Positions 30,182 through 54,668 of a DNA stretch of 64,000 bases are shown here, in pieces. The translations under genes and the position numbers were made by a program. The notes beneath the pieces were generated by a model, which searched no databases, was not told where the DNA came from, and saw nothing but the letters and a program-made list of their open reading frames with translations. The stretch lies in NCBI GenBank assembly GCA_963708335.1, contig OY970205.1, positions 1,756,676-1,820,675 of the forward strand, read 5' to 3'. The DNA is from an uncultured Acidobacteriaceae bacterium. GTDB taxonomy: Bacteria; Acidobacteriota; Terriglobia; Terriglobales; Acidobacteriaceae. How positions within the stretch are numbered: the stretch's first letter is position 1; each line of letters begins with the position of its first letter.

Positions 30182-32215
30182 GTGGTGCGCGACCAGATAG
30201 AACCTAAAACAGGAAACCGATCCACGCCAACGTATGCCACCAGGGGGCTTCAGAGATTTTGGTTGCGTGCGGCGTATCCTGCTGGGTTTGCCGTTCTCTT
30301 CTTGCTGAGTCTTGCGTCGGTGCCGACCGCCTCGGCCCAGATTTCTCCCGGGCCATTGTCGCGGCCGCACCAGTCTCTCAACGGCGCCACCAACTGCGCC
30401 AGTTGCCACAAATTCGGGGGGCAGGCGGCCCTCAAGTGCCTGGCTTGCCATACCGAGATCGCAACTCGGCTCTCCACCCACAAAGGCTTGCATGCCACTT
30501 ACAACATTCCCGCCGGTTCCAGTCAGGAATGCGCGCGCTGCCACTCTGAGCATAATGGAGAGGACTTCCCGCTGATCAAGTGGGATGTCAAGACCTTCAA
30601 TCACAGGGAGACTGGGTACACCCTCGAAGGCAAGCACACCGGCTTGACGTGTAACAAGTGCCACAATGCTTCCCATATCTCTGCCGCCGACCGTCCTGCC
30701 ATCAAAATCAAGGATCTGAGCCGAACTTATCTCGGCCTCTCGACCGCATGTGGCAGCTGTCACGAGGATGCCCACAAAGGCAGGCTGGGTCCGACCTGTC
30801 AGCAGTGCCACAATTTCGAAGACTGGAAGAAAATCAGCATTGCACAGTTCGATCACTCGAAAACACGCTACCCACTCACGGGGCTGCATGCCCAGGTGCA
30901 ATGCGCCAAGTGCCACACCAACGGACCGGATGGCAAGCCGCAATACACCGGGATTCCATTCAACCAGTGCTCCGACTGCCACAAAGACCCCCATCGCGGC
31001 AGCTTCGCCGCGCAAACCTGCCAGTCTTGCCATAACACGAGCGGATGGAAAAAGGTCTCCGCTCAATCGCTGAATGAGCGCTTTGATCACTCCAAGACAA
31101 AGTTCCCCCTGGAGGGCAAGCATGCCAGCGTCGATTGCACCCAATGCCACGCTAATGGCGATTTCAAGAAGCCCCTCGTGTTCCAGAAGTGCATGGATTG
31201 CCACAAACCCGATCCTCACAGCGGCCAGTTTGCGAAGCGTCCCGACGGCGGAGAATGTGCCTCTTGCCACTCGGTGAACGGCTGGAAGCCCTCCACGTTC
31301 ACCGTGAAAGAGCATGCTCTGAGCACGTATCCATTGCAGGGCGGTCATGCGCGCCTGCAGTGCGCCCAGTGCCACATTCCCAAAGGAAAAGAGACGCTCT
31401 TCAGGATCAAGTTCGAGCGCTGCACCGACTGTCACGCCGACAAACATGCCGGGCAGTTTGCCGCGGCACCATACTTCAATGCGTGCGATCGCTGCCACAA
31501 TCTGGAGGGATACAGGCCATCCACCTTCAGCCTGGCCAAGCACAAGCAGACGCGCTTCGTGCTTACCGGCGGCCACATTGCGGTGCCATGCTCCGATTGC
31601 CACAAGGAATCGACCCAGTTCCAGCCCAAGCCGGCTGTGATCTACCACTGGGGCAATCTAAGTTGCACAAGTTGCCACAACGATCCGCACAAGGGGCAAT
31701 TCAAAGACCGCATGCCGCAAGTGCGGGCGGATGGTATGGCGGCTGGGTGTGAAGCCTGCCACACCACCAAGTCATGGAAGGAACTCTCCGGGTTTGATCA
31801 TTCCAAGACGAAGTTCGCTCTGCTTGGGGCCCACCGCGCCACGGCCTGCATCGACTGTCACAAGCCGCCCAACCTCGAGATGAAGATAACGAACGTTGAT
31901 TTCAAGGCCGCACCGACTCAGTGCGAAGACTGCCATCAGGACATTCACGGAAAGCAGTTCGCCGTAGCGGATATTACGCGATGTGCGGATTGTCACAGCC
32001 CCGCAAAGTGGAAGCCTTCCTTGTTCGATCACGACAAACGGACGACCTTCCCCTTGCGTGGAGCTCACCAGAATGTGCGCTGCACGGAGTGTCACAAGCT
32101 GACCAGGGTGGTTGCCGCCAAGTCCGTCCTGTTCTATAAACCGACGCCCAAGGATTGCGCCGCCTGCCACGGGCCGACGAATCCCCTGCCGAAAGCGAAG
32201 CCATCAGGGTTTTGA
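30182..32215 (+). CDS. secreted multihaem cytochrome c, 23 CxxCH motifs (paired-CxxCH / c3-c7-like modules)
   Basis: 677 aa, GTG start, signal-like FAVLFLLSLASVPTASAQ. I counted 23 CxxCH motifs. Recurrent unit F(D/N)H..T.(Y/F)PL.G.H....C..CH. Confidence 0.9.
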   Translation: MVRDQIEPKTGNRSTPTYATRGLQRFWLRAAYPAGFAVLFLLSLASVPTASAQISPGPLSRPHQSLNGATNCASCHKFGGQAALKCLACHTEIATRLSTHKGLHATYNIPAGSSQECARCHSEHNGEDFPLIKWDVKTFNHRETGYTLEGKHTGLTCNKCHNASHISAADRPAIKIKDLSRTYLGLSTACGSCHEDAHKGRLGPTCQQCHNFEDWKKISIAQFDHSKTRYPLTGLHAQVQCAKCHTNGPDGKPQYTGIPFNQCSDCHKDPHRGSFAAQTCQSCHNTSGWKKVSAQSLNERFDHSKTKFPLEGKHASVDCTQCHANGDFKKPLVFQKCMDCHKPDPHSGQFAKRPDGGECASCHSVNGWKPSTFTVKEHALSTYPLQGGHARLQCAQCHIPKGKETLFRIKFERCTDCHADKHAGQFAAAPYFNACDRCHNLEGYRPSTFSLAKHKQTRFVLTGGHIAVPCSDCHKESTQFQPKPAVIYHWGNLSCTSCHNDPHKGQFKDRMPQVRADGMAAGCEACHTTKSWKELSGFDHSKTKFALLGAHRATACIDCHKPPNLEMKITNVDFKAAPTQCEDCHQDIHGKQFAVADITRCADCHSPAKWKPSLFDHDKRTTFPLRGAHQNVRCTECHKLTRVVAAKSVLFYKPTPKDCAACHGPTNPLPKAKPSGF

Positions 32216-32592: not shown

Positions 32593-34548
32593 ATGGGGGC
32601 ATCACGGGGCGCCTACAAATCAATTGTGGTGCTGGCCTTGGCATTTTTCGGAATGCGGGGGCTTGCGCAGGTTTCCGAGGGGACGCATAGTCCTCACGAA
32701 AACCTGAACATTCCCTGTCAGAATTGCCACACGGCGAACGCGTGGAAGCCGATTCGCGCGGTTCCTGAATTCGATCACAATCAAACGAAGTATCCGTTGC
32801 GCGGCATGCACCAAGCGGTGACGTGCGTCCAATGCCACGTCAAGCCCGTGTTCACGAACGTCGGACAGCGCTGTCAGGACTGCCACGCCGATATTCACCG
32901 GCGTCAGCTCGGGGCGAGTTGCGAACAATGCCACACCGTTCGGGGCTGGCAAGTCACGGTGCAGGCTATCCAACAGCATAACAATCGGTTTCCGCTGACG
33001 GGAGCGCACGCCGCAGTGGACTGCGACTCCTGTCATAAGGGCGCAGCCACCAGCCAGTTTCAATCGATGTCGACGGCGTGTTACTCCTGCCACGCGGCAG
33101 ATTTCAAGGGGACCTCCAACCCGAGCCACGTCTCGGGCGGGTTCTCCACGACGTGCAGCCTCTGCCACGGGACGGACACCTGGCTGAACGCGACTTTCGA
33201 CCATTCGTCGGTTGGATTTCCTCTGAGCGGGGGCCATGCCGTACCGCCGCGCATGTGCGCCGATTGCCACATCAACAATAATTACAACTTGTCCAGCACG
33301 GCTTGCGTGAGCTGCCACCTCAAGGACTATCAGGGAACCACCAATCCGAATCACGTGGCCGCTAGTTTTTCGCAGACTTGCAATCAATGCCACAACACCA
33401 CATCGTGGTCGAACGCGTCGTTTAACCACAACGCGACCAACTTTCCGCTGACGGGCATGCACACGGTGCCTCCGCGGCAGTGCATCGATTGCCACGTCAA
33501 CAATAATTACAACCTCACGAGCACAGCGTGCGTCACCTGCCATTTGAAGGATTACCAGGGAACGACGAATCCCAATCACGTGACGTCGAACTTCCCGCAA
33601 GGCTGCGATCAGTGCCACAACACGAGCTCATGGCTGAATGCGACTTTTAACCACAACAGCACCGGACTTCCGCTAACCGGCATGCACACGGTGCCGCCAC
33701 GGCAATGCACCGATTGCCACGTCAACAATAATTACAACCTCACGAGCACGGCGTGCGTCACATGCCATTTGAAGGACTATCAGGGAACGAACAATCCCAG
33801 CCACGTGGCGTCGAACTTCCCGCAGACCTGCGATCAGTGCCACAACACGAGTTCATGGCTGAATGCGACCTTCAATCACAACAGCACCGGATTTCCTCTG
33901 ACCGGCTCGCACACGGTGCCACCCCGGCAGTGCACGGATTGCCACGTCAACAACAACTACAACCTGACCAGCACAGCGTGCGTGACGTGCCACCAAAATG
34001 ATTACAACGGCACGACCAACCCCGCGCACGCGGCCGCGGGATTCCCCACGACTTGCGAATTGTGCCACGACACCACGGTCTGGACCGACTCGACCTTCAA
34101 CCACAACAACACCGCCTTCCCCCTGACCGGTTCACATTTGGTGCCTCCGCGGGTTTGCGCTGACTGTCACGTCAACAACAACTACACGACGCTGCCTACG
34201 ACTTGCATCGGCTGCCACCAGACCGACTACAACAACACCACCAACCCGGGCCACTCTGCGCAACCGCAGTTCTTCCCCACGACCTGCCAGAATTGCCACA
34301 ACACAACCGCATGGACGGGCGCGACCTTTAACCATACGCAGTACACGCAATTTCCAACCAGCCATGGCAACGCGGGTGGCGTGTGTTCGACGTGTCATAT
34401 CAACTCCAACAACTACGCGATTTTCCAGTGCACGGGCTGCCATGGCGGCAATAACGCAAACAACTTCCATCACGACAACGTTTCTGGATATGTCTACAAC
34501 AGCATCAACTGCTACCAATGCCATCAGAGCGGTCATGGCGGGGGTTAA
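32593..34548 (+). CDS. secreted multihaem cytochrome c, 25 CxxCH motifs, internally repetitive
   Basis: 651 aa, signal peptide IVVLALAFFGMRGLAQV. I counted 25 CxxCH motifs. Built from about six trihaem modules of 75-78 aa. Asn/Thr-rich. Confidence 0.9.
   Translation: MGASRGAYKSIVVLALAFFGMRGLAQVSEGTHSPHENLNIPCQNCHTANAWKPIRAVPEFDHNQTKYPLRGMHQAVTCVQCHVKPVFTNVGQRCQDCHADIHRRQLGASCEQCHTVRGWQVTVQAIQQHNNRFPLTGAHAAVDCDSCHKGAATSQFQSMSTACYSCHAADFKGTSNPSHVSGGFSTTCSLCHGTDTWLNATFDHSSVGFPLSGGHAVPPRMCADCHINNNYNLSSTACVSCHLKDYQGTTNPNHVAASFSQTCNQCHNTTSWSNASFNHNATNFPLTGMHTVPPRQCIDCHVNNNYNLTSTACVTCHLKDYQGTTNPNHVTSNFPQGCDQCHNTSSWLNATFNHNSTGLPLTGMHTVPPRQCTDCHVNNNYNLTSTACVTCHLKDYQGTNNPSHVASNFPQTCDQCHNTSSWLNATFNHNSTGFPLTGSHTVPPRQCTDCHVNNNYNLTSTACVTCHQNDYNGTTNPAHAAAGFPTTCELCHDTTVWTDSTFNHNNTAFPLTGSHLVPPRVCADCHVNNNYTTLPTTCIGCHQTDYNNTTNPGHSAQPQFFPTTCQNCHNTTAWTGATFNHTQYTQFPTSHGNAGGVCSTCHINSNNYAIFQCTGCHGGNNANNFHHDNVSGYVYNSINCYQCHQSGHGGG
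33256..34155 (+). repeat. in-frame tandem repeat, 4 x 225 bp (trihaem module)
   Basis: The first Cys codon of each module falls at 33256, 33481, 33706 and 33931 (and 34156), exactly 225 bp apart. Units 2 and 3 are roughly nine-tenths identical at the DNA level by eye. Diverged units flank the array (33022-33255, 34156-~34390). Confidence 0.85.
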
Positions 34549-34613: not shown

Positions 34614-37124
34614 ATGAAGGCAGTGCACAAACATCTTGGAATCGCGACGCTGTTGGTGTCGTGTGCCGCGGCACAGGCGGGCATCACGACATTACAGAGC
34701 GTAAATACAGTGCGCGATGGCGAGAACTTGCGCGTCGAGATTACTCTCAGCGCTCCAACCAAGCCGGCACATGACACTGCCATTCATCCCGACCGCATCC
34801 TGCTTGATCTTCCTGACACCGCCAACGATACCGGAACCAAGAACGTCGCGGTCAATGCGAACGGAGTGCGCCGCGTACGAATCGGCCGGCACAGCGACAC
34901 TCCTCTCGTCACGCGAGTGGTGATTGACCTGGATAGTCCTCATCCTTACACCGTCACCGCGGATGGGAAGCGCATTCTCGTGACTATCGCGCCCGCAGAA
35001 AATTCGCGAGCCGCACGGGGAGCGCCCGTAGCCGCCACAACGGGCGCCCTCATTGGGGTCTTCCGCAGGCGGCACGATTCCAAGCCGGTCAGCGATACAG
35101 CTACAGATATTCCACAAACCCCTGCTCCGCCGCAAGCGGTGGCTGGACCTGCATTCGAACCGCCATCGGAAACGCCGTCGACAGCGGCGGCCCCGACCCC
35201 GCCTGCTCCTGCCCTTCCCACCTTCGCGGCTGGGGCTTCGCCGGAAGTTGCCACGAAGTCGGATGCTTCCACGATCGAGATTGGGAGCAGTGCGAACTCA
35301 GGTGTAACCGCAACCGTGCCAAAGCCGGCCTCAACGTCCGCGTCGAACTCCGTAGCCACTGAGGCGGCCGCCGAGCCAGGTAGCCCCAAGAGTGAGCCGG
35401 CCGCGTCTGTGTTGTCGCTGGCGCCGTCAGCCGTGGCAACCGCATCACCCGCCCCAACGGAAACGTCGACAGTGATCGGCCGCGTCGACGATCCGAACTT
35501 GCGCACGGTCTTCAAGGTGAAATATCTGGCCGACGGCGTAGCGTATCTCGATGGCGGGAAGGCGCAGGGCCTGGCCGAAGGCATGAAGTTAGAGATCGTC
35601 GACACGAACGTACCGGCGAAGCAGGGAGACAGCGCAAACGCTGGCGACCCGCGCGTGGTCGCGGAACTGGAAGTAACCGCGGTTGCGGAGATGTCAGCTG
35701 TCACTGACATTCACGCACCCAAGCGCCAAGTCAGAGTCGGCGACCTTGCCTACCTTTCCAGCAATGATGCGGAAGCCATGGTTCAGCAACGGACGCTCAG
35801 CGCGACCCGTCAATACCCGGCGGTTATCTCCTTTACCGAAAGCGATGAACTCGATGAGGAAGCGCGTCAGGAAGTCCCGCGACCTCCGCTTCCCTCGGTC
35901 AATCGTGCGCGCGGGCGCATTGGCTTCGACACCATCGAAACCTTCAGCCACGGAACCAGCAATGTGACCAGCTCTGACGTGGGCATGGTCTTTCGCGGCG
36001 ACATCACGCGGATCGGCGGCACTTACTGGAATCTCAGCGGCTACTGGCGCGGTGAACTCACCAAAGCATCGGCGGCGTCCCAGCAGACACTGCAGAACCT
36101 GCTGAACCGCACCTATCACCTGAACCTGACGTACGACAATCCCAACTCCACGCTGGTCGCAGGATTTGGCCGTCTGTATTTGCCCTGGGCTCCGAGCCTC
36201 GACACGATTGATGGCGGGTATTTTGGCACGAGACTTTCGAAGGGTGTTGTCCTGGGAATCTTCGGGGGTTCTACGCCCGATCCTTCCTCGTGGGATTACA
36301 GTCCCAACCGAGTGATTGGGGGATCGTTCGTCAACTTCGAAGGCGGAGAGTTCAACGGATTCCATTACAGCAGCACCAGCGGAGTCGGCGTCAGCATGGT
36401 GAACTGGCAGGTCGACCGCCCATTCATCTTTTTTGAGGATTCTTTGTCCTATAAGCGCACCATCGCCCTCTACGAATCAGCGCAACTCGACAATCCGAAG
36501 GGAAATTCCGCTACTCCTTCGCCAGGCTCCGGACTCGGCCGCAACTTCCTGACCTTGCGCATCGACCCGCATCCGCGCGTGGAACTCGACTTCAACTACA
36601 ACTATTTCCGCGATATTCCTACCTTTGATCCAACTCTTATCGGAACTGGGCTGCTCGACAAATACCTGTTCCAGGGCTTCAGTGCCGGAGGACGGCTGGA
36701 CGTGTGGAAGCAGCTTTGGCTGTCCACGAACATCGGCCAAAGCAACGGAACCGGCGACTCCAAAACCAGCCTGAATCAAATGTATGGCATCACCTTTGGC
36801 CGCATTCCAAAATTGAACCTGCGCGCCGACGTCCACTACGCGAAGTTCAACAGTTCATTCGGCGACGGTTCCTATGAATCGTTCGCACTCTCCCGGCAAG
36901 TGAGCGACCGGCTTCGTGTTGAGGTCTTGCTGGGGCAGCAGAAGTTTGCTTCCGCCATCACCACGAATACGCGCAGCCGCTTCGTCACCGGCACGGTCGA
37001 GACTACACTCGGGCCCCACTACTACCTGCAAACAAATTTCACCACGAATCGCGGCGACATGAGCTACGACCAGATGATGTTCTCGATTGGCTACCGGTTC
37101 GATTCGAAGAGGAGAGGAGAATGA
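34614..37124 (+). CDS. outer-membrane protein: signal peptide + AMIN domain + Pro/Ala/Ser-rich linker + large C-terminal beta-barrel-like domain
   Basis: 836 aa. AMIN-like N-terminus (ITTLQSVNTVRDGENLRVEITLS...RILLDLPDT...VRRVRIGRH...TRVVIDLD...ILVTIAP). Low-complexity region at about residues 150-300. The C-terminal half has alternating aromatic/Gly/Asn pattern ending ...MMFSIGYRF plus 8 aa. Confidence 0.6.
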   Translation: MKAVHKHLGIATLLVSCAAAQAGITTLQSVNTVRDGENLRVEITLSAPTKPAHDTAIHPDRILLDLPDTANDTGTKNVAVNANGVRRVRIGRHSDTPLVTRVVIDLDSPHPYTVTADGKRILVTIAPAENSRAARGAPVAATTGALIGVFRRRHDSKPVSDTATDIPQTPAPPQAVAGPAFEPPSETPSTAAAPTPPAPALPTFAAGASPEVATKSDASTIEIGSSANSGVTATVPKPASTSASNSVATEAAAEPGSPKSEPAASVLSLAPSAVATASPAPTETSTVIGRVDDPNLRTVFKVKYLADGVAYLDGGKAQGLAEGMKLEIVDTNVPAKQGDSANAGDPRVVAELEVTAVAEMSAVTDIHAPKRQVRVGDLAYLSSNDAEAMVQQRTLSATRQYPAVISFTESDELDEEARQEVPRPPLPSVNRARGRIGFDTIETFSHGTSNVTSSDVGMVFRGDITRIGGTYWNLSGYWRGELTKASAASQQTLQNLLNRTYHLNLTYDNPNSTLVAGFGRLYLPWAPSLDTIDGGYFGTRLSKGVVLGIFGGSTPDPSSWDYSPNRVIGGSFVNFEGGEFNGFHYSSTSGVGVSMVNWQVDRPFIFFEDSLSYKRTIALYESAQLDNPKGNSATPSPGSGLGRNFLTLRIDPHPRVELDFNYNYFRDIPTFDPTLIGTGLLDKYLFQGFSAGGRLDVWKQLWLSTNIGQSNGTGDSKTSLNQMYGITFGRIPKLNLRADVHYAKFNSSFGDGSYESFALSRQVSDRLRVEVLLGQQKFASAITTNTRSRFVTGTVETTLGPHYYLQTNFTTNRGDMSYDQMMFSIGYRFDSKRRGE

Positions 37125-37948
37125 TCCATTCAGTTCAACCCCTCCGGAAAGGAATGCGCCTGGCACTGGTTCTTCTCGCCTGTGCTACATCTGCCCTGTG
37201 CTTAGCCGGCGCCAGTTCCGCGTCTCCAGAAGAACAGAAGTTGAACAGCCTCTTGGGACGCACGGCCGAGCAGACGGCAGTATTCCTCGATCAATTCGCA
37301 GACGTAAAGTGCACCGAGCAAGTACGCCAGGAGAAACTGGGCAAGGACAGCAAAGTGGAACTTAAGGAAGACTCCACTTATGACTACCTAGTCATCCTGA
37401 CGAATGCCGGGGGCGAACTGAATCTCTCGGAATCACGGATCCCCGTTCGTGAGGCGAAGCGGGACCGGCGCAATACTCCTATGCTGCTAAGCAACGGCTT
37501 CGCAACCCTGTTCCTTATTTTCCATCCTTATTATTCGGCTGCCTTCAAGTTCACCCTCGCCGGCGAGGAAGTCATTGGAGGCCTGACTCTGGAAAAAGTC
37601 CGCTTCGAGCACATCACAGGCATGAAATCGCCGGCGGCGCTTGCCCTGCGCGGAAGGGAGTATCCTCTTGAACTTTCAGGGATGGCGTGGGTCGACGCGC
37701 AGACTGGTTCAATCGCCAAAATCGAGGCCGGCATCGCAGACTCGCTCGCCGATGTCGGGATGAAATCGCTGGACTCCGAGATCGATTTTGCGCCGGTATC
37801 GTTCGCTGGGTCGAAGACAGCCTACTGGTTTCCGATCCAGGCGCGCGTAGAGGTCGAAACTCCCAGGCAGCACTGGCGTAACTTGCACCAATTTACCGCA
37901 TACAAGAGATTCTCAGTAACTACGGAAGAGCAGGTCACCACGAAATGA
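37121..37948 (+). CDS. secreted hypothetical protein
   Basis: The start overlaps the upstream stop (ATGA). Signal peptide MRLALVLLACATSALCLAGA. No domain recognised. Confidence 0.55.
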   Translation: MIHSVQPLRKGMRLALVLLACATSALCLAGASSASPEEQKLNSLLGRTAEQTAVFLDQFADVKCTEQVRQEKLGKDSKVELKEDSTYDYLVILTNAGGELNLSESRIPVREAKRDRRNTPMLLSNGFATLFLIFHPYYSAAFKFTLAGEEVIGGLTLEKVRFEHITGMKSPAALALRGREYPLELSGMAWVDAQTGSIAKIEAGIADSLADVGMKSLDSEIDFAPVSFAGSKTAYWFPIQARVEVETPRQHWRNLHQFTAYKRFSVTTEEQVTTK

Positions 37949-38898
37949 GCGCGAACGCCACCGCCACCGCACGTATAGTCGCCGGCGCCAAAACCGGCCC
38001 GGACTCCGAGCGCGGGCATAAGCTCCGCCTCCGCGCCTTGTACATGCTTGCTTTTGCCACGAACCTCGCGATCTTTATCTACGGCTTCGACTACTACAAA
38101 CTGTCGGCCATCGATCGTCCCTTTTCACCGAAGCATCACATGCTCCGCCCCAGCGGCCCGATTGGGCTGTATCTGGGATTCATGGGCGTAGCTTTGTTCG
38201 CTGGCATCTTCCTCTATCCGCTCCGCAAGCACTGGGCGTGGCTGGGGACGAAAGGCAGCACCCGGCATTGGCTCGATATTCATGTGCTGATGGGGCTGAC
38301 CGCGCCGTTCATCATTGCGTTTCACTCCACCCTGAAGTTCAAAGGCATTGCGGGAATGGCTTTCTGGATCATGTTCGCGGTGTCAGCCAGCGGAGTTGTA
38401 GGACGCTATCTCTATGCGCAAATTCCGCGCAAGATGAGCACCGCCGAACTGTCAATGCGGGAAGTCCAGGAGTTGCAAGAAACATTGTCGCAGCAGCTTG
38501 CGGCACAAAACCTTCTTCCTGCGGCCGACTTGCGCGCATTGCTGCGGATGCCGGATGCGAAGATGGTGACGCGCCTTCCCATCGTCGTCGCTTTGGTCTA
38601 TATGATGATTCTCGATGTGGTCCGCGTTTTCCGCGTCGCGCGGTTGCGTCGTCATGCACTCAGTTTCGGCGGGTACATGCAAACCTTGGCGGGATTCCTG
38701 CCTACACGCAATCGTGAGATCGAGAAAGCCATTCATGCGGCGGCGGAAGAAGCCGCGCTTTCCAAGAGAATCCTGTTCCTCTCGCGCTCGCAGAAAGTTT
38801 TTCACCTCTGGCACGTCGTGCATAAGCCGTTCAGCTACGCCTTCGCCGTGCTGGCGCTATTGCACATCGCACTGCAATTTGTTCTGGGATATTTCTGA
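37945..38898 (+). CDS. integral membrane protein with two His-x13-His helix pairs (candidate dihaem b-type electron carrier)
   Basis: The start overlaps the upstream stop (ATGA). About 6 TM. HVLMGLTAPFIIAFH and HKPFSYAFAVLALLH each place two His 14 residues apart inside predicted helices. Confidence 0.5.
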   Translation: MSANATATARIVAGAKTGPDSERGHKLRLRALYMLAFATNLAIFIYGFDYYKLSAIDRPFSPKHHMLRPSGPIGLYLGFMGVALFAGIFLYPLRKHWAWLGTKGSTRHWLDIHVLMGLTAPFIIAFHSTLKFKGIAGMAFWIMFAVSASGVVGRYLYAQIPRKMSTAELSMREVQELQETLSQQLAAQNLLPAADLRALLRMPDAKMVTRLPIVVALVYMMILDVVRVFRVARLRRHALSFGGYMQTLAGFLPTRNREIEKAIHAAAEEAALSKRILFLSRSQKVFHLWHVVHKPFSYAFAVLALLHIALQFVLGYF

Positions 38899-38907
38899 TT
38901 CGACTCC

Positions 38908-40299
38908 ATGGAAACCCTTATCACTTACGGCGTCGGCGGCCTCATTTGCCTCTTCTTTTTAGTCGGCTATCTGAAGCGTCTGAAGAAGGCCGAAGCCCGC
39001 GCCCGCGAGGCCGCCGAAAAAGGCAAGCTCTTTTCCGAAGGACCGAAGGCCCAGCATCCTCATATCGATTCGAACTATTGCATCGGCTGCGGAACCTGCA
39101 CTAGCGTCTGCCCCGAAGGTGACGTACTGGCGATGATTGCGGGCAAGGCGGTCATTGTGAATGGCCACAAGTGCATCGGTCATGGCCTGTGCGCGGATGC
39201 GTGCCCCGTCGGCGCGATCACGATGGTGATGGCCAGCCCGAGCATGGCCGCCGACATGCCCCATCTCACGCCGGAGTACGAGACCACCATCCCGAACCTT
39301 TTTATTGTCGGCGAACTCGGCGGGCTGGCTCTGATCAAGAACGCCGTGAATCAGGGACGCGACTGCGTTGACACGATTGCCGCGCGCCTCAAGACAAGAT
39401 CTGCCCAGGCCATCCCTGGCGTTTACGACGTCTTAATCGTTGGCGCGGGGCCGGCCGGCATCAGCGCGTCGCTGCGCGCCATAGAAAGCAAACTCAATTA
39501 CATCACGCTCGAGCGCGACGAAGTTGGCGGCACGGTCGCCAAGTATCCGCGACAAAAACTCGTGATGACGAGCCCCGTCGAATTTCCCATGTACGGCAAG
39601 TTCAAGAAGTTGCAGCTTTCCAAAGAACACCTGCTGGCCTTCTGGGACATGATTCTGAACCGCGCTGATTTCAATGTGTCGACCGGCGAGAAGGTTGAGG
39701 ACATCACGAAGGACGACAAGGGCATCTTCACGGTCATCTCCGCGACCAATCAGTATCGTGCGCGGTCGGTCATTCTCGGGCTTGGCCGGGCCGGAGAGCC
39801 ACGCAAGCTCGGCGTTAAAGGCGAGCAACTGCCCAAAGTGATGTACCGCTTGATCGAGGCAGATCACTACATCAACAAAAAGATTCTTGTCGTCGGGGGC
39901 GGCGACAGCGCGGTCGAAGCCGCTCTCGGACTCGCCAACCAGACCGGAAACCAGGTGACGCTCTCGTACCGCAGCGAGCGCTTTAGCCGCATCAAGGAAC
40001 GGAATGCCAATCGCGTCGAAGAGTGCATGCGCTCAGGAAAAGTCCGTGTGTTGTTTAATTCCAATCCGGTTGAATTCAAACCCGAATCAGTATCGATCGA
40101 CGTGAACGGCGCCAGACAAGAAATTCCCAATGATTTTGTCTGGATCTTCGCGGGAGGAAATCCACCCACAGCCTTCCTTAAAAAGATCGGCATAGGTTTC
40201 GGAGCTCGCGACCTGACCCTCGAGGCCAGCAGAGAAGCGAAGCAGGCCAATGAAGACCGCAAGCAATTCGCCCAGGCACATGCTGCGCCGGCTCGCTGA
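38908..40299 (+). CDS. membrane-anchored 2x[4Fe-4S] ferredoxin-domain + FAD/NAD(P)-binding oxidoreductase
   Basis: N-terminal TM helix followed by Lys/Arg-rich sequence. CIGCGTCTSVCP and CIGHGLCADACP. DVLIVGAGPAGISA (FAD). ILVVGGGDSAVEAA (NAD(P)). Confidence 0.75.
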   Translation: METLITYGVGGLICLFFLVGYLKRLKKAEARAREAAEKGKLFSEGPKAQHPHIDSNYCIGCGTCTSVCPEGDVLAMIAGKAVIVNGHKCIGHGLCADACPVGAITMVMASPSMAADMPHLTPEYETTIPNLFIVGELGGLALIKNAVNQGRDCVDTIAARLKTRSAQAIPGVYDVLIVGAGPAGISASLRAIESKLNYITLERDEVGGTVAKYPRQKLVMTSPVEFPMYGKFKKLQLSKEHLLAFWDMILNRADFNVSTGEKVEDITKDDKGIFTVISATNQYRARSVILGLGRAGEPRKLGVKGEQLPKVMYRLIEADHYINKKILVVGGGDSAVEAALGLANQTGNQVTLSYRSERFSRIKERNANRVEECMRSGKVRVLFNSNPVEFKPESVSIDVNGARQEIPNDFVWIFAGGNPPTAFLKKIGIGFGARDLTLEASREAKQANEDRKQFAQAHAAPAR

Positions 40300-40754: not shown

Positions 40755-41501
40755 CTAGTTCTCCGCATAGACCGGCCCGGCCTGGCGAGAGGGTGGATCG
40801 GCGACAGCGCGGATATAGGAAATCAGCGCCTGTACATCAGACTTGCTGAGCGTGTTTCCCCAGGCCGGCATGAGGGCCGATTTGTTGAGGGCCGGACCTC
40901 CATAGCTGATGATCGCGGTGAGGTCGGCGTCGCTGATTTTGTTCAGCGTATCTCCTTCGGTGAAGGGGTGAGGCTTGACCTCGAGGTTGTCATAGTTGGA
41001 GACGCGCTCGACCGTAGACTCGGGATTGTGGCAGCGTTCGCAGTATTGATCGTTGAGTCGGCGTCCGAGGGTTTGCTGATAGCCGAGTGCGATCTCTTCT
41101 ATCTTTAATTCCACCTTTCTGTGGGACTTGTCGATCGTCGAGGCGACGAGTTGGTAACGGCCCGCCATGCCTCCGAGAGATACATTGGTCGTGACTTGGC
41201 CGCTGGAGTCGGTAAGCCCGCTGGCGGGATCGAACGTTACCCCGGGGATCGCTGCGAATTCGACTAGAGCTCCGGATACGGCAGCTCCCTGCTCGTCGTT
41301 TACCTGGACTACGACTGGTTGCGGCAACCAGGCGCCGGTCTGCGCGAACTGTTTTCCGCCGCTGGATTCGATGATCGCGGCGCCGAAAGCCGTGGGCTTG
41401 GGCAGAGGTGCGGACTCGGTCTTACGCGAACAGGAAATAGCCAGCGATGTTGCCAGCACCGCGACAACGAAGGTACCGATTGTATGGAAGTGGCGCGTCA
41501 T
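40755..41501 (-). CDS. lipoprotein with Ig-like domain and C-terminal monohaem cytochrome c domain
   Basis: Lipobox-like LAISC. Single CERCH with a distal Met region (ALMPAWG). The start overlaps the upstream stop (ATGA). Confidence 0.7.
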   Translation of the reverse strand: MTRHFHTIGTFVVAVLATSLAISCSRKTESAPLPKPTAFGAAIIESSGGKQFAQTGAWLPQPVVVQVNDEQGAAVSGALVEFAAIPGVTFDPASGLTDSSGQVTTNVSLGGMAGRYQLVASTIDKSHRKVELKIEEIALGYQQTLGRRLNDQYCERCHNPESTVERVSNYDNLEVKPHPFTEGDTLNKISDADLTAIISYGGPALNKSALMPAWGNTLSKSDVQALISYIRAVADPPSRQAGPVYAEN

Positions 41502-43543
41502 TTCTTGGCGACCTCCGGTTTGGCTCCGCCTTTTTGCGAGATCAGAAATGCGGTCAGAGCGCGCGCATCGTCGTCAGTCATGGCGCGGTTCGGCTCCACG
41601 GTACCCGGGCGCAGAGCCTGCGGATTTTTCATCCACTGGTAGATCCAGGCGGCGGTAAGGCGCGAGCCAACCTGCGTCAGCGTGGGGCCGATGTAGCCCT
41701 TGTCTGTCTTGGTGTCGAGGATGTGGCATCCCTGGCAGGAATACTTGCCATAGAACAGTTGCTTCCCGAGTTCCACCTCGCCTTGGGAGTAGCCGCTCAA
41801 CGGCATGGAGTCGCGATCAACTGACGGATTCTGATACACGGTCATGATGTAGTCGGTGAGTTCGTTGATTTCGGAATCGGTCAGGTTGAAGCGTGGCATG
41901 CGGCGAATCAGCGCCGGACGCAGCGTTCCTGGATTCTTGAAAAACTGCACCAGCCACTCGCGCTGGACGGAACTGCCTTCCCAGGTCAGGTCCGGCGCCA
42001 TGTCGCCACCGCGCCCGTTGATGCGATGGCAACTGAAGCAGGCTAAGTCAGACATCAGTTTCCCGGCTTTGCCGGCAGGCTGGTAATCCGACTCGGGGAC
42101 TGCGGCAACAGCCAGGGATGCTGGCAAAGTAGTCGAACGCTCGTTCAGAGCCAGCAACGCTGTGGTCAGTGCATCGATCTGCGTCGGCGTGAAGCTGTAT
42201 TGCGGCATTCGCAGGTTCGGCGAAAATGCCCGTGGTTCTTTGATTTTGCCCGCAAGGTAATCGGGAAGGGTGTGCGGCATCCCGGGCAGAAAAATGAGCT
42301 GGGTAATCGACTTGCTGCCAATGCGGCTGAGTTCCGGAGCGAAGTTTTCCGGCTTCTTGATTCCGGCGATTTCGTGGCAGGAGGCGCAGCCATAGTCCGA
42401 TACGAGGCGCTTGCCGTGCGCGATCTGCTCGGGAGTAGCCGCATCCAAGTGAACGTTGGCAAGGAGATCGGAATCCGCCTTCGCGAGAAGGAATCCGGAT
42501 AAGGTCGCGACCTGCGGATCGTTGAAGCGATAGTGCGGCATCGCCGTGCCGGGATCGTATACGCGCGGATTTTTCAGCCAGCCTTGCAGCCACTCCGGCT
42601 TCACTTTGCTGCCAATGCGCGTCAGTTCCGGACCAACATCACCACCAACCACGTTCCCCGCCGCATTCTGCACAGCGTGGCACGAGGCGCAAAAGGATTC
42701 ACCATAAAGGCTGGGGCCGGCAGTAGGATCAGCGGCGGGCTTGCCGGAGAGACTGGCAGAGTCTCCCGGCACGGCCGTGCTATTGGCGACCAGGAAAGCG
42801 GAGATGTCGCGCGCATCGTCGTCACTCAACTTGAAATTCGGCATCGTGGCGCTGACCGCATAGGCTCGCGGATCTTTCAGCCACGCGTAAATCCACTCTC
42901 GCGTGGTCTTGTCGGCAATGTGCGAAAGAGAGGGCGCATCGTCACTGGCTTTGAGCGTGCTGCCATCGGGCAGTTTCACCGTATGACAGTTGACACAACC
43001 GTAGCGAGAGAGCAGGTTGCGTCCCTGATTGAGAACAGGAGTTCCTGGCAACGGACCGCGGTGGCATTCCCCACAGGAAGACTCGATGTATTTGGCCGGA
43101 AGAATGGGCTGCTCCCAGGCGAGCGTACTGTTATGCGCTTCAGATACGGTAGTCGCAGCGCCCTGCCCGCGATGACACACGGTGCAGCCGAACTGGTCGA
43201 GCTTGTGCGGAATCACGGGATGAGTGCGGAAGGGTTGGGTAGAAACATCGGTAAGACTGGGTTCCTTCAGTCCGACGTGGCAACTGGTGCAGCGGTCCAC
43301 GACTCCAAGTTCTGGAAGCCAGATCTGCTGAATCCCTGGCTTGAAGTGCCTCTGCAGGGTGTTGGCCTCGCTGCGGTTGCGAATCGTCTTCAGATACCCG
43401 TGCTGATAGTGGCGCCACTCGCTGAAAAAGTTCTTCGCGGGAGCGATCGCCAGCGATGCGAGAAAAATGACGCTGATCACACCGAAGGCGCGCACGCTGT
43501 CGCCGAATAACTTATGCCATATCGATGTGAATTTCTGTCTCAT
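41498..43543 (-). CDS. membrane-anchored octahaem cytochrome c (4 N-terminal haems + 4 class-I-like domains)
   Basis: TM helix FGVISVIFLASLAIAP. 8 CxxCH (CTSCH, CTVCH, CGECH, CVNCH, CASCH x2, CFSCH, CQGCH). ATG 43543 is preferred over GTG 43606, which would overlap the upstream gene by 44 nt. Confidence 0.8.
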   Translation of the reverse strand: MRQKFTSIWHKLFGDSVRAFGVISVIFLASLAIAPAKNFFSEWRHYQHGYLKTIRNRSEANTLQRHFKPGIQQIWLPELGVVDRCTSCHVGLKEPSLTDVSTQPFRTHPVIPHKLDQFGCTVCHRGQGAATTVSEAHNSTLAWEQPILPAKYIESSCGECHRGPLPGTPVLNQGRNLLSRYGCVNCHTVKLPDGSTLKASDDAPSLSHIADKTTREWIYAWLKDPRAYAVSATMPNFKLSDDDARDISAFLVANSTAVPGDSASLSGKPAADPTAGPSLYGESFCASCHAVQNAAGNVVGGDVGPELTRIGSKVKPEWLQGWLKNPRVYDPGTAMPHYRFNDPQVATLSGFLLAKADSDLLANVHLDAATPEQIAHGKRLVSDYGCASCHEIAGIKKPENFAPELSRIGSKSITQLIFLPGMPHTLPDYLAGKIKEPRAFSPNLRMPQYSFTPTQIDALTTALLALNERSTTLPASLAVAAVPESDYQPAGKAGKLMSDLACFSCHRINGRGGDMAPDLTWEGSSVQREWLVQFFKNPGTLRPALIRRMPRFNLTDSEINELTDYIMTVYQNPSVDRDSMPLSGYSQGEVELGKQLFYGKYSCQGCHILDTKTDKGYIGPTLTQVGSRLTAAWIYQWMKNPQALRPGTVEPNRAMTDDDARALTAFLISQKGGAKPEVAKK

Positions 43544-43562
43544 GTCTGCTGCATCCTTGTCC

Positions 43563-44270
43563 TTAAGACCCCTGCCACGGCCATATCCACGACCAACCCG
43601 GACCACGGAAAAATGTGCCGATGGCAGTAAGCACGATGAGTTCGAATAAAAACCAGGTCATCACCCAATACGAAAGCGGTCGCGCGACCAGATACCGCCG
43701 GAAGCCTGAAATCGATTGGGGAGAGCTATACGCTGCAACAAGCATCACCGCGCCCATGATCACAGTCGGAACTAGGGCCGCGTAGACTTTGAAAAAAAGC
43801 AGGAATAGTGAAAGAAGAATCGCCACGCCATAGAAAATGCGCAGGCGGCGCTGGCGGTCTTTCAGGAATAGTCCATCGGCCTCGATATTGACTTTGAAGT
43901 AAGGAATGACAATCAACGCCATGACGACAAGTCCGGGCGCAAGCACGCCCGCAACCACCGGCGGAAAATAATGCAGCATCTCCTGCAGGCCGAGAAAGTA
44001 CCACGGCGCTTTTGCGGGATTCGGCGTGTGCGAAGGGTCAGCCAGGCCTTCGAGCGGAGCGTTAAAGATCAGCGCAATCCAAACCAGGGCGACGGCCAGC
44101 GTCATCACCGCAACCGCCGCGCGGAATAGCACCTCGGGAAAAGTCTGGACCTGGTCTTCGGTCTCGGCCTTCACCTGCGCCGAGGTGCGCCGCGTGACGA
44201 AGACAATCCGTCGCGGAGATTTCTTCGCGTTCGAGTCGATGCCGGCGATGAAGTCCTTGGACTCTGCCAT
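43563..44270 (-). CDS. cytochrome b C-terminal (subunit IV-like) membrane protein
   Basis: PNPAKAPWYFLGLQEMLHYFP (PEWY-type Qo-site motif region). Multiple TM helices. The start overlaps the cytochrome b stop (TAATG). Confidence 0.7.
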   Translation of the reverse strand: MAESKDFIAGIDSNAKKSPRRIVFVTRRTSAQVKAETEDQVQTFPEVLFRAAVAVMTLAVALVWIALIFNAPLEGLADPSHTPNPAKAPWYFLGLQEMLHYFPPVVAGVLAPGLVVMALIVIPYFKVNIEADGLFLKDRQRRLRIFYGVAILLSLFLLFFKVYAALVPTVIMGAVMLVAAYSSPQSISGFRRYLVARPLSYWVMTWFLFELIVLTAIGTFFRGPGWSWIWPWQGS

Positions 44271-45058
44271 TACTGCGCTCCCTTCTCATTTCGTGCGGCA
44301 GCTTCGGCTCGCACGACGGCAGGTTCGCTCGCATGCGAGTACAGTCCACCATCTTTGCGAATCCGCCAGAAATGGATGGCGACGAAGAACAATGCAGCGA
44401 GCGGAAGGATCATGCAGTGCAGCACGTAGAAACGCAGCAGCGCGTTGGCGTTGACCGCGTTTCCACCCAGCAGGAGAAAGTGGATCTTTTCGCCCATCAC
44501 TGGAACCGCCGATGCAATGTTCGATCCCACCGTAATTGCCCAATACGCCAGTTGATCCCAGGGAAGCAGGTAGCCGGTGTAGCTGAGCAGCAGAGTAATG
44601 AGAAGCAGGACAACTCCGATCACCCAATTGAATTCGCGAGGCGGCCGGTATGCGCCGCGGTAGAACACCTTGAACATGTGCGCGAACACCAGAAACACCA
44701 TGGCGTGCGCGGACCAGCGATGCAGGTTGCGTAGAAATAATCCAGAGGAGACTACGAACTGCAGGTCTTTCGTGTCGGCGTAAGCCTGCGGTACCGACGG
44801 GTGATAGTAGAACATCAGCGGAATCCCGGTCGCGACCAGGATGAGAAATGTGCCGAGCGTCAGCGTGCCCAGATACCAGGTCGCGCTGAAACTCAGCATG
44901 CGCGTGCGCACCTTGGTGGAAAACAGATGCAGGAACACATTCTGCTGAATGGCCAGGGAGCGCTTTAGAGTGCTCGAACCGACGCCGCTGCGGAAGATCG
45001 AGCGCCACACTCGTGTTTCGCGCAGATCGTTGAAGTATTGGTCTGCTGTTTTCGCCAT
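44270..45058 (-). CDS. cytochrome b (b6-type N-terminal four-helix haem domain)
   Basis: [15 protein letters not shown] (His-x13-His) and [16 protein letters not shown] (His-x14-His). WFRSIH-like N-terminus. LPWDQLAYW. Confidence 0.85.
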
Positions 45059-45060
45059 GC

Positions 45061-45558
45061 TTAAACCCTCACGAACTGCATAGGCGGGATGTCGGTGGAA
45101 CGGTCCACCAGCAAGTCTCCGTCGTCATTGAGCCACATGCGCTTCCACGGCAGCGGCTTGGGCGCGGGACCCTCGATTTTGTCGCCTGGTTTGTGATTGC
45201 CCTGCTGCTGAACGTAGAACTTGCTGCCGTGACAGGGGCACGCGATGATGCCCAATTCCGGCTTCCACGCTGTCAGGCAACCTAAATGCGTACACACCGC
45301 GCTGAGCGAGAAATACCCCTCCTGCGAGTGAATAATGAAAATGCCGGTGTTCGCATCAAGCGTGACGGAGTCAAGCGGATAGCGGTCGGGCTTTCCGGCG
45401 TTCACCACCGGAGACGGCTCAAAAAGTACATTCGGCTCGAGGTATTGATACGCGAACGCCGCCGTGCCGGCGGCGGCAATGCTTAACGAGCCGAGCCCGA
45501 GTTTCAGAAAGAATTGACGGCGGTTGACATCGTCAGTCGGTTTTGGTTCCTCTGCCAT
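45061..45558 (-). CDS. Rieske [2Fe-2S] protein with Tat signal
   Basis: [13 protein letters not shown] twin-Arg leader. CTHLGC ... CPCHGS. Confidence 0.9.
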
Positions 45559-45570
45559 ATTGCCTCGCGC

Positions 45571-47526: not shown

Positions 47527-47653
47527 GCACGGCGTTTCCAATCTCGAAACAGCGGCTGAACGTCCACCTCGGTTTGCAGTACAAGAGCGATACGGATTCG
47601 AGGAGCAGTGCCCCAAGCGCAACTGCTCCCCTGTCACCCCGGACGAGATGCAG

Positions 47654-48235
47654 TTACTTCGTCAGGGTGAAATCCGCTTTCCCGCCGCCGGCTACGGTGA
47701 CGGGCTTCGACTGGTTCTTCGCCCCTTCGTGCCAGACGGTCAGCGTGTAACTTCCGTCGGGAACGTCTTTGATCTTGTAGTTGCCGCTGTCGTCGGTCTC
47801 GGCAAAATAAGGAGTTGGACTGACAATCAGATATCCCGCCATGTCTGGGTGCACATTGCACAGCAGCGGCACAACTCCCGGTTTGTCGAAGGTAAAAGGA
47901 CGCTTTTCACCCTTGGGCCACGTGCCCAGGTTGTGTCCGGCTTTCTTGTCGTTGCCGATCGCCGTCCAAAAAACATTGTGTTGCACCGTGTCGCTATTGA
48001 GGAACTCAACCGTCGTACCCTGTTGCACGACCATGATGTGCGGCACAAACATCAGCCCCTTTTGATCGATCACCGGATGATCTTTGGGTGCGGGAAAAGT
48101 TTTGCCCGCGATCGTGTCCACGTAAACCACGGAGCGGCCCTTCATTCCCGCAACCTTGCCCTCGATGTCGCCGGCGAAAGCCGCGCTGCACAACCCAACG
48201 ATCAAAGCCATCATTACCAATATCTTGCCTTTCAT
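47654..48235 (-). CDS. secreted cupredoxin-like (type-1 copper) protein with C-terminal CarboxypepD_reg-like domain
   Basis: Signal peptide. FVPHIMVVQQGTTVEFLNSDTVQHNV ... LLCNVHPDMAGYLIV. This gives a His ... Cys-x2-His-x2-Met ligand pattern as in amicyanin. The C-terminal GNYKIKDVPDGSYTLTVW is CarboxypepD_reg-like. Confidence 0.65.
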   Translation of the reverse strand: MKGKILVMMALIVGLCSAAFAGDIEGKVAGMKGRSVVYVDTIAGKTFPAPKDHPVIDQKGLMFVPHIMVVQQGTTVEFLNSDTVQHNVFWTAIGNDKKAGHNLGTWPKGEKRPFTFDKPGVVPLLCNVHPDMAGYLIVSPTPYFAETDDSGNYKIKDVPDGSYTLTVWHEGAKNQSKPVTVAGGGKADFTLTK

Positions 48236-54553: not shown

Positions 54554-54668
54554 GCTCCCATTCCTCCAACGATTTTCTGGATTCCCGAACTCTAATCAAC
54601 TTCCAGCGTGACGCGCATGAGTTCACACTCCTGCGAATATGCGAGCAGTTACGGAACGATGCCTCGCT

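Follow-up and report, generated by a model that had tools for sequence, protein, structure and literature searches.

A PCC3-type candidate cytochrome b and its Fe-S flavoprotein partner in Acidobacteriota: a possible NAD(P)H-linked inner-membrane module of a porin-cytochrome conduit

We analysed 64,000 nucleotides of an uncultured Acidobacteriaceae bacterium (NCBI GenBank assembly GCA_963708335.1, contig OY970205.1, positions 1,756,676 to 1,820,675 of the forward strand), hereafter the window. According to its list of open reading frames (ORFs), six closely packed genes on the + strand encode two multihaem cytochromes c (MHC1 and MHC2), an outer-membrane barrel protein, an exported protein of 275 amino acids (p275), a membrane protein of 317 amino acids, called here the inner-membrane protein (IMP), and a protein of 463 amino acids with iron-sulphur (Fe-S), FAD and NAD(P) motifs, called here the flavoprotein. 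We propose that IMP and flavoprotein together form the inner-membrane, NAD(P)H-linked module of a porin-cytochrome conduit of the PCC3 type, along which electrons would travel outward. We give this proposal an even chance. The motifs of the components, their conservation, topology and gene linkage and their orthology across phyla are observed directly.

A previous sequence-only reading of this DNA had described the last two genes as a split NOX-like module. Both ORFs are indeed present on the + strand, at 37945..38898 (317 aa) and 38908..40299 (463 aa), and by published motifs, size and gene neighbours the first encodes an inner-membrane protein of the PCC3/PCC4 type. PCC3 clusters have four parts: a porin, an extracellular MHC with many small residues and repeats (median 34 haems), a periplasmic MHC (median 21 haems) and a conserved IMP of ~300 aa (He et al. 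2017, Front Microbiol 8:1584; PMC5566968). For PCC3 and PCC4 IMPs, the signature given there combines five transmembrane (TM) helices with SGxxG on TM4 and a Wx3Hx13H motif on each of TM3 and TM5; the same authors likened these proteins to the ferric-reductase/NOX domain and to cytochrome b and proposed that they hold two b haems. The window IMP has every one of these features, size included, as judged with 54 homologues. Its gene context agrees as well: cytochromes of 23 and 25 haems and a barrel protein accompany it in the window, and corresponding genes do so in 74-76 of the 81 close loci and in distant ones. The NOX-like view of the IMP is thus not new, since the resemblance to NOX and ferric-reductase domains (FRD) was published in 2017.

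Where the first reading counted about six TM helices in the IMP, the family conserves five: TM1 (38029-38091), TM2 (38158-38223), TM3 (38260-38328), TM4 (38344-38421) and TM5 (38809-38886), with a cytoplasmic helical insert of 125 aa between the last two (38422-38808). Residues 211-229 are hydrophobic in the clade of the window only (Kyte-Doolittle value 2.27; across the family, the 19-residue stretch of highest hydrophobicity within 195-245 has a median of 0.93). Because their flanks are strongly basic and of cytoplasmic type, averaging 6.6 and 11.1 Lys+Arg, we place them in the cytoplasm or at the interface rather than counting a sixth TM helix.

Two pairs of His, each 14 residues apart, had been pointed out in the IMP, and they stand: HVLMGLTAPFIIAFH (H113...H127) and HKPFSYAFAVLALLH (H293...H307) both hold H-x13-H within hydrophobic helices. 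The first pair lies in the TM3 motif W109-x3-H113-x13-H127 (38269..38325) and would supply axial ligands to a cytoplasmic-side and a periplasmic-side haem; the second, in the TM5 motif W289-x3-H293-x13-H307 (38809..38865), would complete them. All four His proved invariant in an alignment of 54 full-length homologues sharing 26-66% identity with the query. They make up four of its only 11 invariant columns, at a mean column identity of 35%, so their conservation is not due to chance. S149, G150 and G153 on TM4 and W289 on TM5 are further invariant columns; the SGxxG motif, here S149-G150-V-V-G153 (38389..38403), is found in 54/54 sequences, while W109 (52/54) and H290 (53/54) are nearly so. 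The family is large, with 2178 representatives of 50%-identity clusters at an expectation value (E) ≤ 1e-3 and 1179 at E ≤ 1e-10. Every source that names the protein calls it a 'hypothetical protein', and its closest named relatives belong to 'Candidatus Sulfotelmatobacter' and other Terriglobia.

Charge distribution gives the IMP an N-in/C-out topology, the loops 94-108 and 230-288 averaging 5.8 and 11.1 Lys+Arg. TM3 and TM5 both point outward, from the cytoplasm into the periplasm, as in NOX/FRD, so that H113 and H293 come to lie close to the cytoplasmic side of the membrane and H127 and H307 close to its periplasmic side. As far as the alignment can tell, two stacked bis-His haems would require just such a layout, and the bis-His geometry that had been read from a single sequence is borne out across the family. 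An AlphaFold2 (AF2) model built with the family alignment is all-helical (predicted local distance difference test, pLDDT, 90.9; predicted template modelling score, pTM, 0.84), and its helices agree with the five TM segments. The IMP is likely to be a two-haem b protein.

The weak Pfam matches of the family are almost confined to four families of b-haem membrane proteins. Among the 54 homologues, sub-threshold matches fall on DUF4405 (30), Ferric_reduct (14), Ni_hydr_CYTB (10) and PepSY_TM (2). The window IMP scores 21.5 bits against DUF4405 (PF14358), below the cut-off of 26.7, in a match that covers only residues 287-310 of the last helix, the stretch of the TM5 motif. It has no match to Ferric_reduct (PF01794), and the 14 members that do match it stay weak (best E 1.5e-4, under 28 bits); by the Pfam threshold the family does not belong to Ferric_reduct. 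DUF4405 and the FoxB-like PepSY_TM cytochromes are small membrane proteins in which four central His are the most conserved residues, and haem b binding by DUF4405 and by FezC is experimental (Huang et al. 2024, PMC11334425). They share the four-His plan with the IMP, whose best Pfam match, if sub-threshold, is DUF4405; they differ in being tied to flavinylation (ApbE) or siderophore reduction, not to porin-cytochrome clusters or an Fe-S flavoprotein.

The flavoprotein (38908..40299) is a membrane-anchored protein composed of a TM helix, a ferredoxin domain, a probably permuted GD segment and domains of the YpdA and thioredoxin reductase (TrxR) type. Its N-terminal TM helix (38908-38976) is followed by a Lys/Arg-rich stretch, in line with the cytoplasmic orientation already assigned to it; a Tat motif is absent from the N-terminus. 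The FAD and NAD(P) folds had also been recognised correctly: the FAD Rossmann fold starts with GAGPAG (39424..39519) and the NAD(P) Rossmann fold comprises GGGDSA and LSYR-x3-F-x-R (39880..39990).

Of two CxxCxxCxxxCP motifs claimed for this protein, the first is as described (C58-x2-C61-x2-C64-x3-C68-P69, 39079..39114), whereas the second reads CxxHxxCxxxCP (C89-x2-H92-x2-C95-x3-C99-P, 39172..39207). We followed both motifs in 74 orthologues extracted from the retrieved loci, where the invariance of motif 1 was imposed by the selection of ORFs and that of His92 was not, and in a cross-phylum set of 9 sequences with 38-45% identity. Motif 2, written C-x-G-H-G-x-C-x3-C-P, is kept by 74/74 and 9/9 sequences, His92 being invariant. 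The second Cys of motif 1 varies across phyla between C, S and T, with S or T in 4/9 cross-phylum orthologues. By analogy, motif 2 would bind a His-ligated [4Fe-4S] or a [3Fe-4S] cluster. The former is the electron exit cluster of [NiFe]-hydrogenases, and a [3Fe-4S] cluster with the same Cys spacing, Cx5Cx3CP, adjoins the membrane anchor in SdhB/FrdB, as at the SdhB-SdhC contact of complex II. Either type suits, on these precedents, a hand-off to a membrane haem.

At the NAD(P) site, Y354 and R355 are invariant, and the site is rich in Arg with no acidic residue in both sets of orthologues. Following the HRR of TrxR and the YRG of Bdr, this suggests NADPH rather than NADH as the cofactor.

Pfam assigns Fer4 family models and Pyr_redox_3 (E 2.6e-44) to the flavoprotein. 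Among solved structures, the bacillithiol disulfide reductases YpdA/Bdr are nearest to it (PDB 7a7b, E 1.5e-26); thioredoxin reductases and the TrxR-type ferredoxin-NADP reductases come next. With YpdA/Bdr (7a7b, 7a76) and the last-named enzymes (3ab1, 3lzw) it shares the two-Rossmann FAD/NAD(P)H fold and the YR-type NADPH motif. It is not itself a Bdr. Aligned to 7a7b, the Bdr Cys of GGGPCG falls on Ala183 of GAGPAG, and position 183 is Ala or Gly in 74/74 orthologues; no CxxC occurs outside the Fe-S motifs, and a redox-active Cys pair is lacking. A TM helix and a two-cluster ferredoxin domain are added, and the GD motif appears to be relocated. The NCBIfam model for YpdA/Bdr, TIGR04018, matches at E 2e-48 with 164.9 bits against a cut-off of 339.9, and database names are of the kind 'putative YpdA family bacillithiol system oxidoreductase' or 'thioredoxin reductase'. 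One of the searches for homologous proteins yielded only sequences with 77% identity or more.

A segment of the form FETN-x-PG-x-FI-x-GELGG-xx-LI-x-NA, in the window EYETTIPNLFIVGELGGLALIKNAVNQGR (39274..39360), sits between the ferredoxin domain and the GxGxxG of the FAD domain and is conserved across phyla. It resembles the C-terminal FAD 'GD' segment of TrxR-type enzymes, with a z of 3.9 in local alignment to the GD motif of a 419-aa TrxR-like protein of the same window. The Pfam matches of the flavoprotein stop at model positions 279/305 and 251/291, and the protein ends where the C-terminal GD motif would normally come. Since a GD-like segment precedes GxGxxG and the C-terminus stops short of GD, the sequences suggest that the FAD domain is circularly permuted, with GD moved to the front. 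Flavoprotein variants of 611-617 aa were considered as fusions and rejected as C-terminal duplications.

The two genes share a reading frame and are separated by 9 nt, and the p275 and IMP genes overlap via ATGA; scans of the locus for promoters and terminators gave matches below chance. A genome search with an alignment of 14 IMP sequences returned loci of Terriglobia only. We compared 81 Terriglobia loci, with IMP identities of 54-100%. In every one of them the flavoprotein gene lies immediately downstream of the IMP gene. Upstream, p275, the barrel protein and the cytochromes are found wherever the contig extends: cytochromes and barrel in 74-76/81, the rest being cut by contig ends. The pair is also adjacent in 8/10 loci of distant family members (25-35% identity), with gaps of 1-5 nt or, in several, overlaps, and in both gene orders. 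Marinimicrobia (GCA_018693345), Gemmatimonadota and Krumholzibacteriia account for these eight loci together with unassigned contigs and plasmid pEMTOL02. After the pair, distant loci carry a 17-23-haem cytochrome, a 22-40-haem cytochrome and a protein of 513-555 aa without a Pfam match. The flavoprotein is translationally coupled with the IMP across at least five phyla, and the idea of a tightly coupled gene pair beside multihaem cytochromes holds well beyond the window.

The plasmid copy belongs to Emticicia oligotrophica DSM 17448 (NC_018749.1, 81299-89995), where the two proteins of the pair have the accessions WP_015031196 and WP_015031197. Presence of the whole cassette on a plasmid of a cultured aerobic Bacteroidota points to horizontal mobility and offers a tractable host. 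The surrounding region of this 100-kb plasmid (78197-90781) holds ccsA, the IMP and flavoprotein genes, cytochromes of 23 and 40 haems, a 538-aa barrel protein and a GW-domain protein. Individual lineages add parts of their own: Terriglobia have p275 and the AMIN domain, whereas in place of p275 two loci have a TPR protein and Marinimicrobia a Haem_bd (PF14376) protein. The only public contig with an identical IMP that we examined (ENA ERZ25039517 contig_111093) comes from a frameshift-rich assembly, in which the cytochrome and barrel genes are fragmented. One 742-aa protein joining the barrel C-terminus, p275 and the IMP was discarded as a fusion, being an artefact of reading through frameshifts.

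In phmmer comparisons, the five cassette components are orthologous between the window and distant loci, the barrel protein only in part. MHC1 (677 aa, 30182..32215, + strand; 23 CxxCH motifs, signal peptide) matches the first MHC of distant loci at E 1e-108 to 1e-147, and so represents the ~20-23-haem 'periplasmic' cytochrome of the cassette. MHC2 (651 aa, 32593..34548, + strand; 25 CxxCH motifs, internal repeats, rich in Thr, Asn and Ser) belongs with the second cytochrome of 22-40 haems (E 5e-98 to 2e-232) and answers the description of PCC3 extracellular MHCs, 'extracellular' in the PCC3 model (PMC5566968). Its repeats, about six and near-identical, follow the pattern ...FPLTGMHTVPPRQC-x-DCHVNNNYNLTSTACVTCHLKDYQGT-x-NP-x-HV... 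and are Asn/Thr/Ser-rich.

The barrel protein (836 aa, 34614..37124, + strand) consists of a signal peptide, a PilQ-like AMIN domain (residues 31-124), a linker of ~160 residues rich in Pro, Ala, Ser and Thr, and a C-terminal putative β-barrel of ~540 aa. Three of the four complete distant proteins in the barrel position (513, 527 and 544 aa) match it at E 7e-12 to 2e-21; the one at locus L088 does not, and that at L082 was left out of the comparison. All 4/4 complete distant proteins end in YRF or YRW, the β-signal of outer-membrane proteins, and the window protein in ...GYRF(+7). AMIN domain and linker (34614-35500) are seen in Terriglobia only, the homologues of 513-555 aa from other phyla having neither. 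The small p275 (37121..37948, + strand), a possible lipoprotein (LLAC), gave no match in family and structure searches; it is present in 79/81 Terriglobia loci and was not found in the distant ones.

A natural fusion ties the IMP to MHC1. The protein P0172, found on 8 contigs and with two further members of its cluster on 10 more (18 contigs in total), consists of the N-terminal third of an MHC1-like cytochrome followed by an IMP domain comprising TM2-TM5. Residues 8-264 share 46% identity with the signal peptide plus initial third of the 23-haem cytochrome of the window and residues 268-502 share 37% with IMP residues 71-316, the join lying in loop 1 just before TM2. As a c-type cytochrome must be periplasmic, so must loop 1 be; on these alignments the fusion fixes the topology of the IMP and links its periplasmic haem side to MHC1. 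By analogy, P0172 looks like a CbcL-style single-chain variant of the family. At its locus (L094/L095, 8001-9509, from two independent soil metagenome assemblies), a gene for a 446-aa cytochrome lies upstream, and neither flavoprotein nor barrel gene is nearby.

We now outline the pathway that these components could form; in it, we infer haem and cluster binding, complex formation, outward direction and quinone independence. The flavoprotein would sit at the cytoplasmic face, held by its own TM helix, and oxidise NAD(P)H, probably NADPH, at its FAD. Single electrons would pass from FAD through cluster 1 to the terminal His-ligated or 3Fe cluster, enter the IMP at the cytoplasmic-side b haem (H113/H293) and cross to the periplasmic-side b haem (H127/H307). 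From there they may flow to the N-terminal haems of the 23-haem cytochrome, on to the 25-haem cytochrome threaded through or resting on the barrel, and finally to acceptors outside the cell, for instance Fe(III), Mn(IV) or humics. The outward direction is argued from energetics, the path being downhill from about -320 mV and helped by the membrane potential. As in NOX, the proton-motive force would be dissipated, because the proton of NAD(P)H stays inside while negative charge leaves; no such force being built, the system would be of use for balancing the redox state or acquiring metals by reduction, not for conserving energy. Likely uses are the regeneration of oxidised pyridine nucleotide, reductive mobilisation of iron and reduction of humics. 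The probable preference for NADPH and the cassette of the aerobic oligotroph Emticicia fit such non-respiratory roles. In its fullest form, the proposal would be a quinone-independent, five-component electron export machine with a two-haem cytochrome b of new fold and a surface wire of 25-40 haems, widespread and plasmid-mobile; we advance that form tentatively, at somewhat less than even likelihood.

How far is the module NOX-like? The bis-His layout of the IMP and the orientation of its helices speak for that part of the description: pairs on TM3 and TM5, both running in to out, would stack redox cofactors across the membrane. The dehydrogenase does not bear it out. NOX proper has a dehydrogenase of the ferredoxin-NADP reductase (FNR) type fused at its C-terminus, whereas here it is a separate polypeptide of Pyr_redox_3/YpdA type with Fer4 clusters. 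A published precedent is MsrQ with Fre, a two-component NOX-like system whose dehydrogenase is separate (Juillan-Binard et al. 2017, cited in PMC12525009). Like the module proposed here, it has a cytoplasmic NAD(P)H flavoenzyme as donor and a redox protein of the periplasm as acceptor. The IMP departs from NOX and ferric reductases in having five TM helices instead of six (no TM6), the 125-aa insert between TM4 and TM5, H-x13-H on both helices, and no significant sequence or Foldseek match to them. Its partner is TrxR/YpdA-type with a ferredoxin domain and a TM anchor, not FNR-type like that of NOX nor a soluble flavin reductase like Fre, and the proposed acceptor is a multihaem wire rather than O2 or MsrP. 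In another known arrangement, that of the Tmc, Hmc and DsrMK-type complexes of sulfate reducers, the transmembrane electron path is built from a multihaem cytochrome in the periplasm, a b-haem protein in the membrane and an Fe-S protein in the cytoplasm. These complexes and succinate dehydrogenase differ in having unrelated membrane subunits and no NAD(P)H flavoprotein, and in Tmc and Hmc the flow is thought to be inward.

Several observations weigh against an NAD(P)H-linked outward module. Searches for known folds of ferric-reductase, DUF4405 or cytochrome b561 type, which the first reading had suggested, failed to place the IMP. Foldseek with the confident model retrieved no solved structure from the PDB, neither NOX nor STEAP nor any other (best E 0.92), a blank that is probably of limited weight because the 3Di signal is all-helical and the 125-aa insert intervenes. 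The family profile found nothing among PDB sequences, and the single sequence nothing relevant; DUF4405 stayed below its cut-off. The hhalign comparison of the family with E. coli MsrQ was not significant (E 0.1, probability 0.6%), its best local alignment laying the W-x3-H...H of TM5 on MsrQ 142-165. That stretch contains H151, which was mutated (H151A) in the MsrQ study (PMC12525009). Comparisons with YodB (cytochrome b561) and the cytochrome b6 of the window likewise gave no significant match. For the flavoprotein, an AF2 model made with 36 close homologues was unusable (pLDDT 49.6). Both families are known to us as sequences. The IMP family also occurs without the flavoprotein, which is absent beside the IMP-family gene at the P0388 and P0172 fusion loci and from four-gene proteobacterial PCC3; such relatives need another electron source, plausibly quinol. 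Lastly, the published proposals for PCC3 are a quinone-active cytochrome b for the IMP (PMC5566968) and, in iron oxidisers, inward electron flow.

The first of these published proposals is the main rival, and we regard it as unlikely without being negligible. The IMP would then be a quinol:cytochrome c oxidoreductase, a quinone-coupled cytochrome b like CbcL, CymA or NarI-type proteins, and the flavoprotein a docked NAD(P)H:quinone reductase that feeds or poises the bound quinone. The tentative suggestion of He et al. 2017 for PCC3/PCC4 IMPs speaks for it (PMC5566968), as do the family members that lack the flavoprotein, the weak matches to the quinone-reactive family Ni_hydr_CYTB and the bound ubiquinone of MsrQ, a related kind of protein (PMC12525009). 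Against this, we identified no quinone-site motif in the IMP; an anchored Fe-S exit domain beside the cytoplasmic-side haem makes a simpler electron path; and in at least five phyla the flavoprotein has remained tightly coupled in translation to the IMP.

An inward conduit, in which extracellular Fe(II), minerals or reduced humics would send electrons through the cytochromes and b haems to a flavoprotein that reduces NAD(P)+, seems to us quite improbable. In its favour, Fe(II) oxidisers are the organisms in which PCC3 was first recognised and for which it is discussed, and Sideroxydans CL21 cells that oxidise iron upregulate the IMP gene of one copy. Standard potentials, however, imply that electrons from Fe(II)/Fe(OH)3 or humics would have to climb steeply to reach NAD(P)+ (-320 mV); they would also move against the membrane potential, and nothing in either protein suggests proton coupling or bifurcation. 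Moreover, Terriglobia, Emticicia, Marinimicrobia and Gemmatimonadota are not known as lithotrophic iron oxidisers, and the clusters of iron oxidisers lack the flavoprotein.

Two further readings we reject as highly implausible. A disulfide reductase of bacillithiol or thioredoxin type, acting on a soluble substrate and next to the IMP by accident, would explain the YpdA/Bdr matches and the database names, but not the TIGR04018 score far under its cut-off, the Ala or Gly at the position of the Bdr Cys, the missing CxxC, the added anchor and ferredoxin domain, or the adjacency to the IMP at 81/81 close and 8/10 distant loci. A true bacterial NOX analogue, whose outer haem reduces O2 to superoxide in the periplasm, would share the TM3/TM5 bis-His layout, and bacterial NOX enzymes exist, but the pair is constantly linked with a barrel protein and about 45-60 c-type haems, many hosts come from anoxic peat or sediment, and the family stays below the Ferric_reduct threshold.

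Near the cassette lies a convergent operon on the - strand (40755-48235), which includes a Rieske protein, a cytochrome b6 and a subunit-IV-like protein. Its other products are a cupredoxin-like protein (47654-48235), a 688-aa GltD-like Fe-S/FAD NAD(P)H oxidoreductase whose C-terminal domain is 2xFer4 (45571-47637), a 702-aa protein with five class-I cytochrome c domains and c7-like haems, and a protein combining Big_1 with cytochrome c. Such a Rieske/cytochrome b complex, equipped with an NAD(P)-linked flavoprotein of its own, is reminiscent of the unusual bc complexes in anammox bacteria. The operon is not a conserved neighbour of the cassette, occurring in 2/81 loci. Elsewhere in the window we note an IS481-type transposase near its start (489-1667), a histidine kinase with an ethylene-receptor-like ETR1_N domain (20303-21940, E 6e-42), and adjacent genes for glycogen phosphorylase and phosphoketolase (52043-57110).

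Compared with published PCC3 clusters, the cassette of the window shares the five-TM IMP of ~300 aa with SGxxG and Wx3Hx13H, standing beside a ~21-27-haem cytochrome, a repeat-rich second cytochrome and a barrel. The published clusters are four-gene, proteobacterial and without a cytoplasmic partner; the type described here has the Fe-S flavoprotein as a fixed fifth component, is hosted by Acidobacteriota, phyla of the FCB group and Gemmatimonadota, and in Terriglobia adds the AMIN domain on the barrel protein and the extra p275. Work on Gallionellaceae also treats PCC3 as four genes without a cytoplasmic partner and with untested function (PMC10734462, PMC12442390). A search of a plasmid collection for proteobacterial PCC3 returned Emticicia only. 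The IMP family, its NOX/FRD-like His pattern, the PCC3 cluster type and the principle of a two-component NOX-like system are already published. Our literature search, in part poorly targeted, found no description of a fixed partnership between IMP and flavoprotein, of the features of the flavoprotein (CxxHxxCxxxCP, the lost Bdr Cys, the probable circular permutation) or of the spread of the five-gene form beyond Proteobacteria.

To our knowledge, all characterised extracellular electron routes of Gram-negative bacteria leave the inner membrane via quinol dehydrogenases (CymA, ImcH, CbcL, CbcBA). A conserved Fe-S flavoprotein partner with a link to NAD(P)H provides a concrete, testable hypothesis on how PCC3 clusters, which are widespread, manage the inner-membrane step, and the cassette on the plasmid of a cultured aerobic Bacteroidota makes the question accessible to experiment. 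If the proposal is true, the principle of NOX and MsrQ, from cytoplasmic pyridine nucleotide over stacked b haems to the outside, would extend to the reduction of minerals and humics, and in its fullest form the five-component machine would be without bacterial precedent as a NOX-style transmembrane NAD(P)H oxidoreductase that is devoted to acceptors outside the cell. Heterotrophs could then dump reducing equivalents on minerals or humics without using the respiratory chain, and the machine would be common among soil Acidobacteriota as well as Marinimicrobia, Gemmatimonadota and Bacteroidota. Since the hosts include some of the most abundant phyla of soil and ocean, the question bears on the redox balance of fermentative and oligotrophic heterotrophs, on iron mobilisation and on the turnover of peat carbon.

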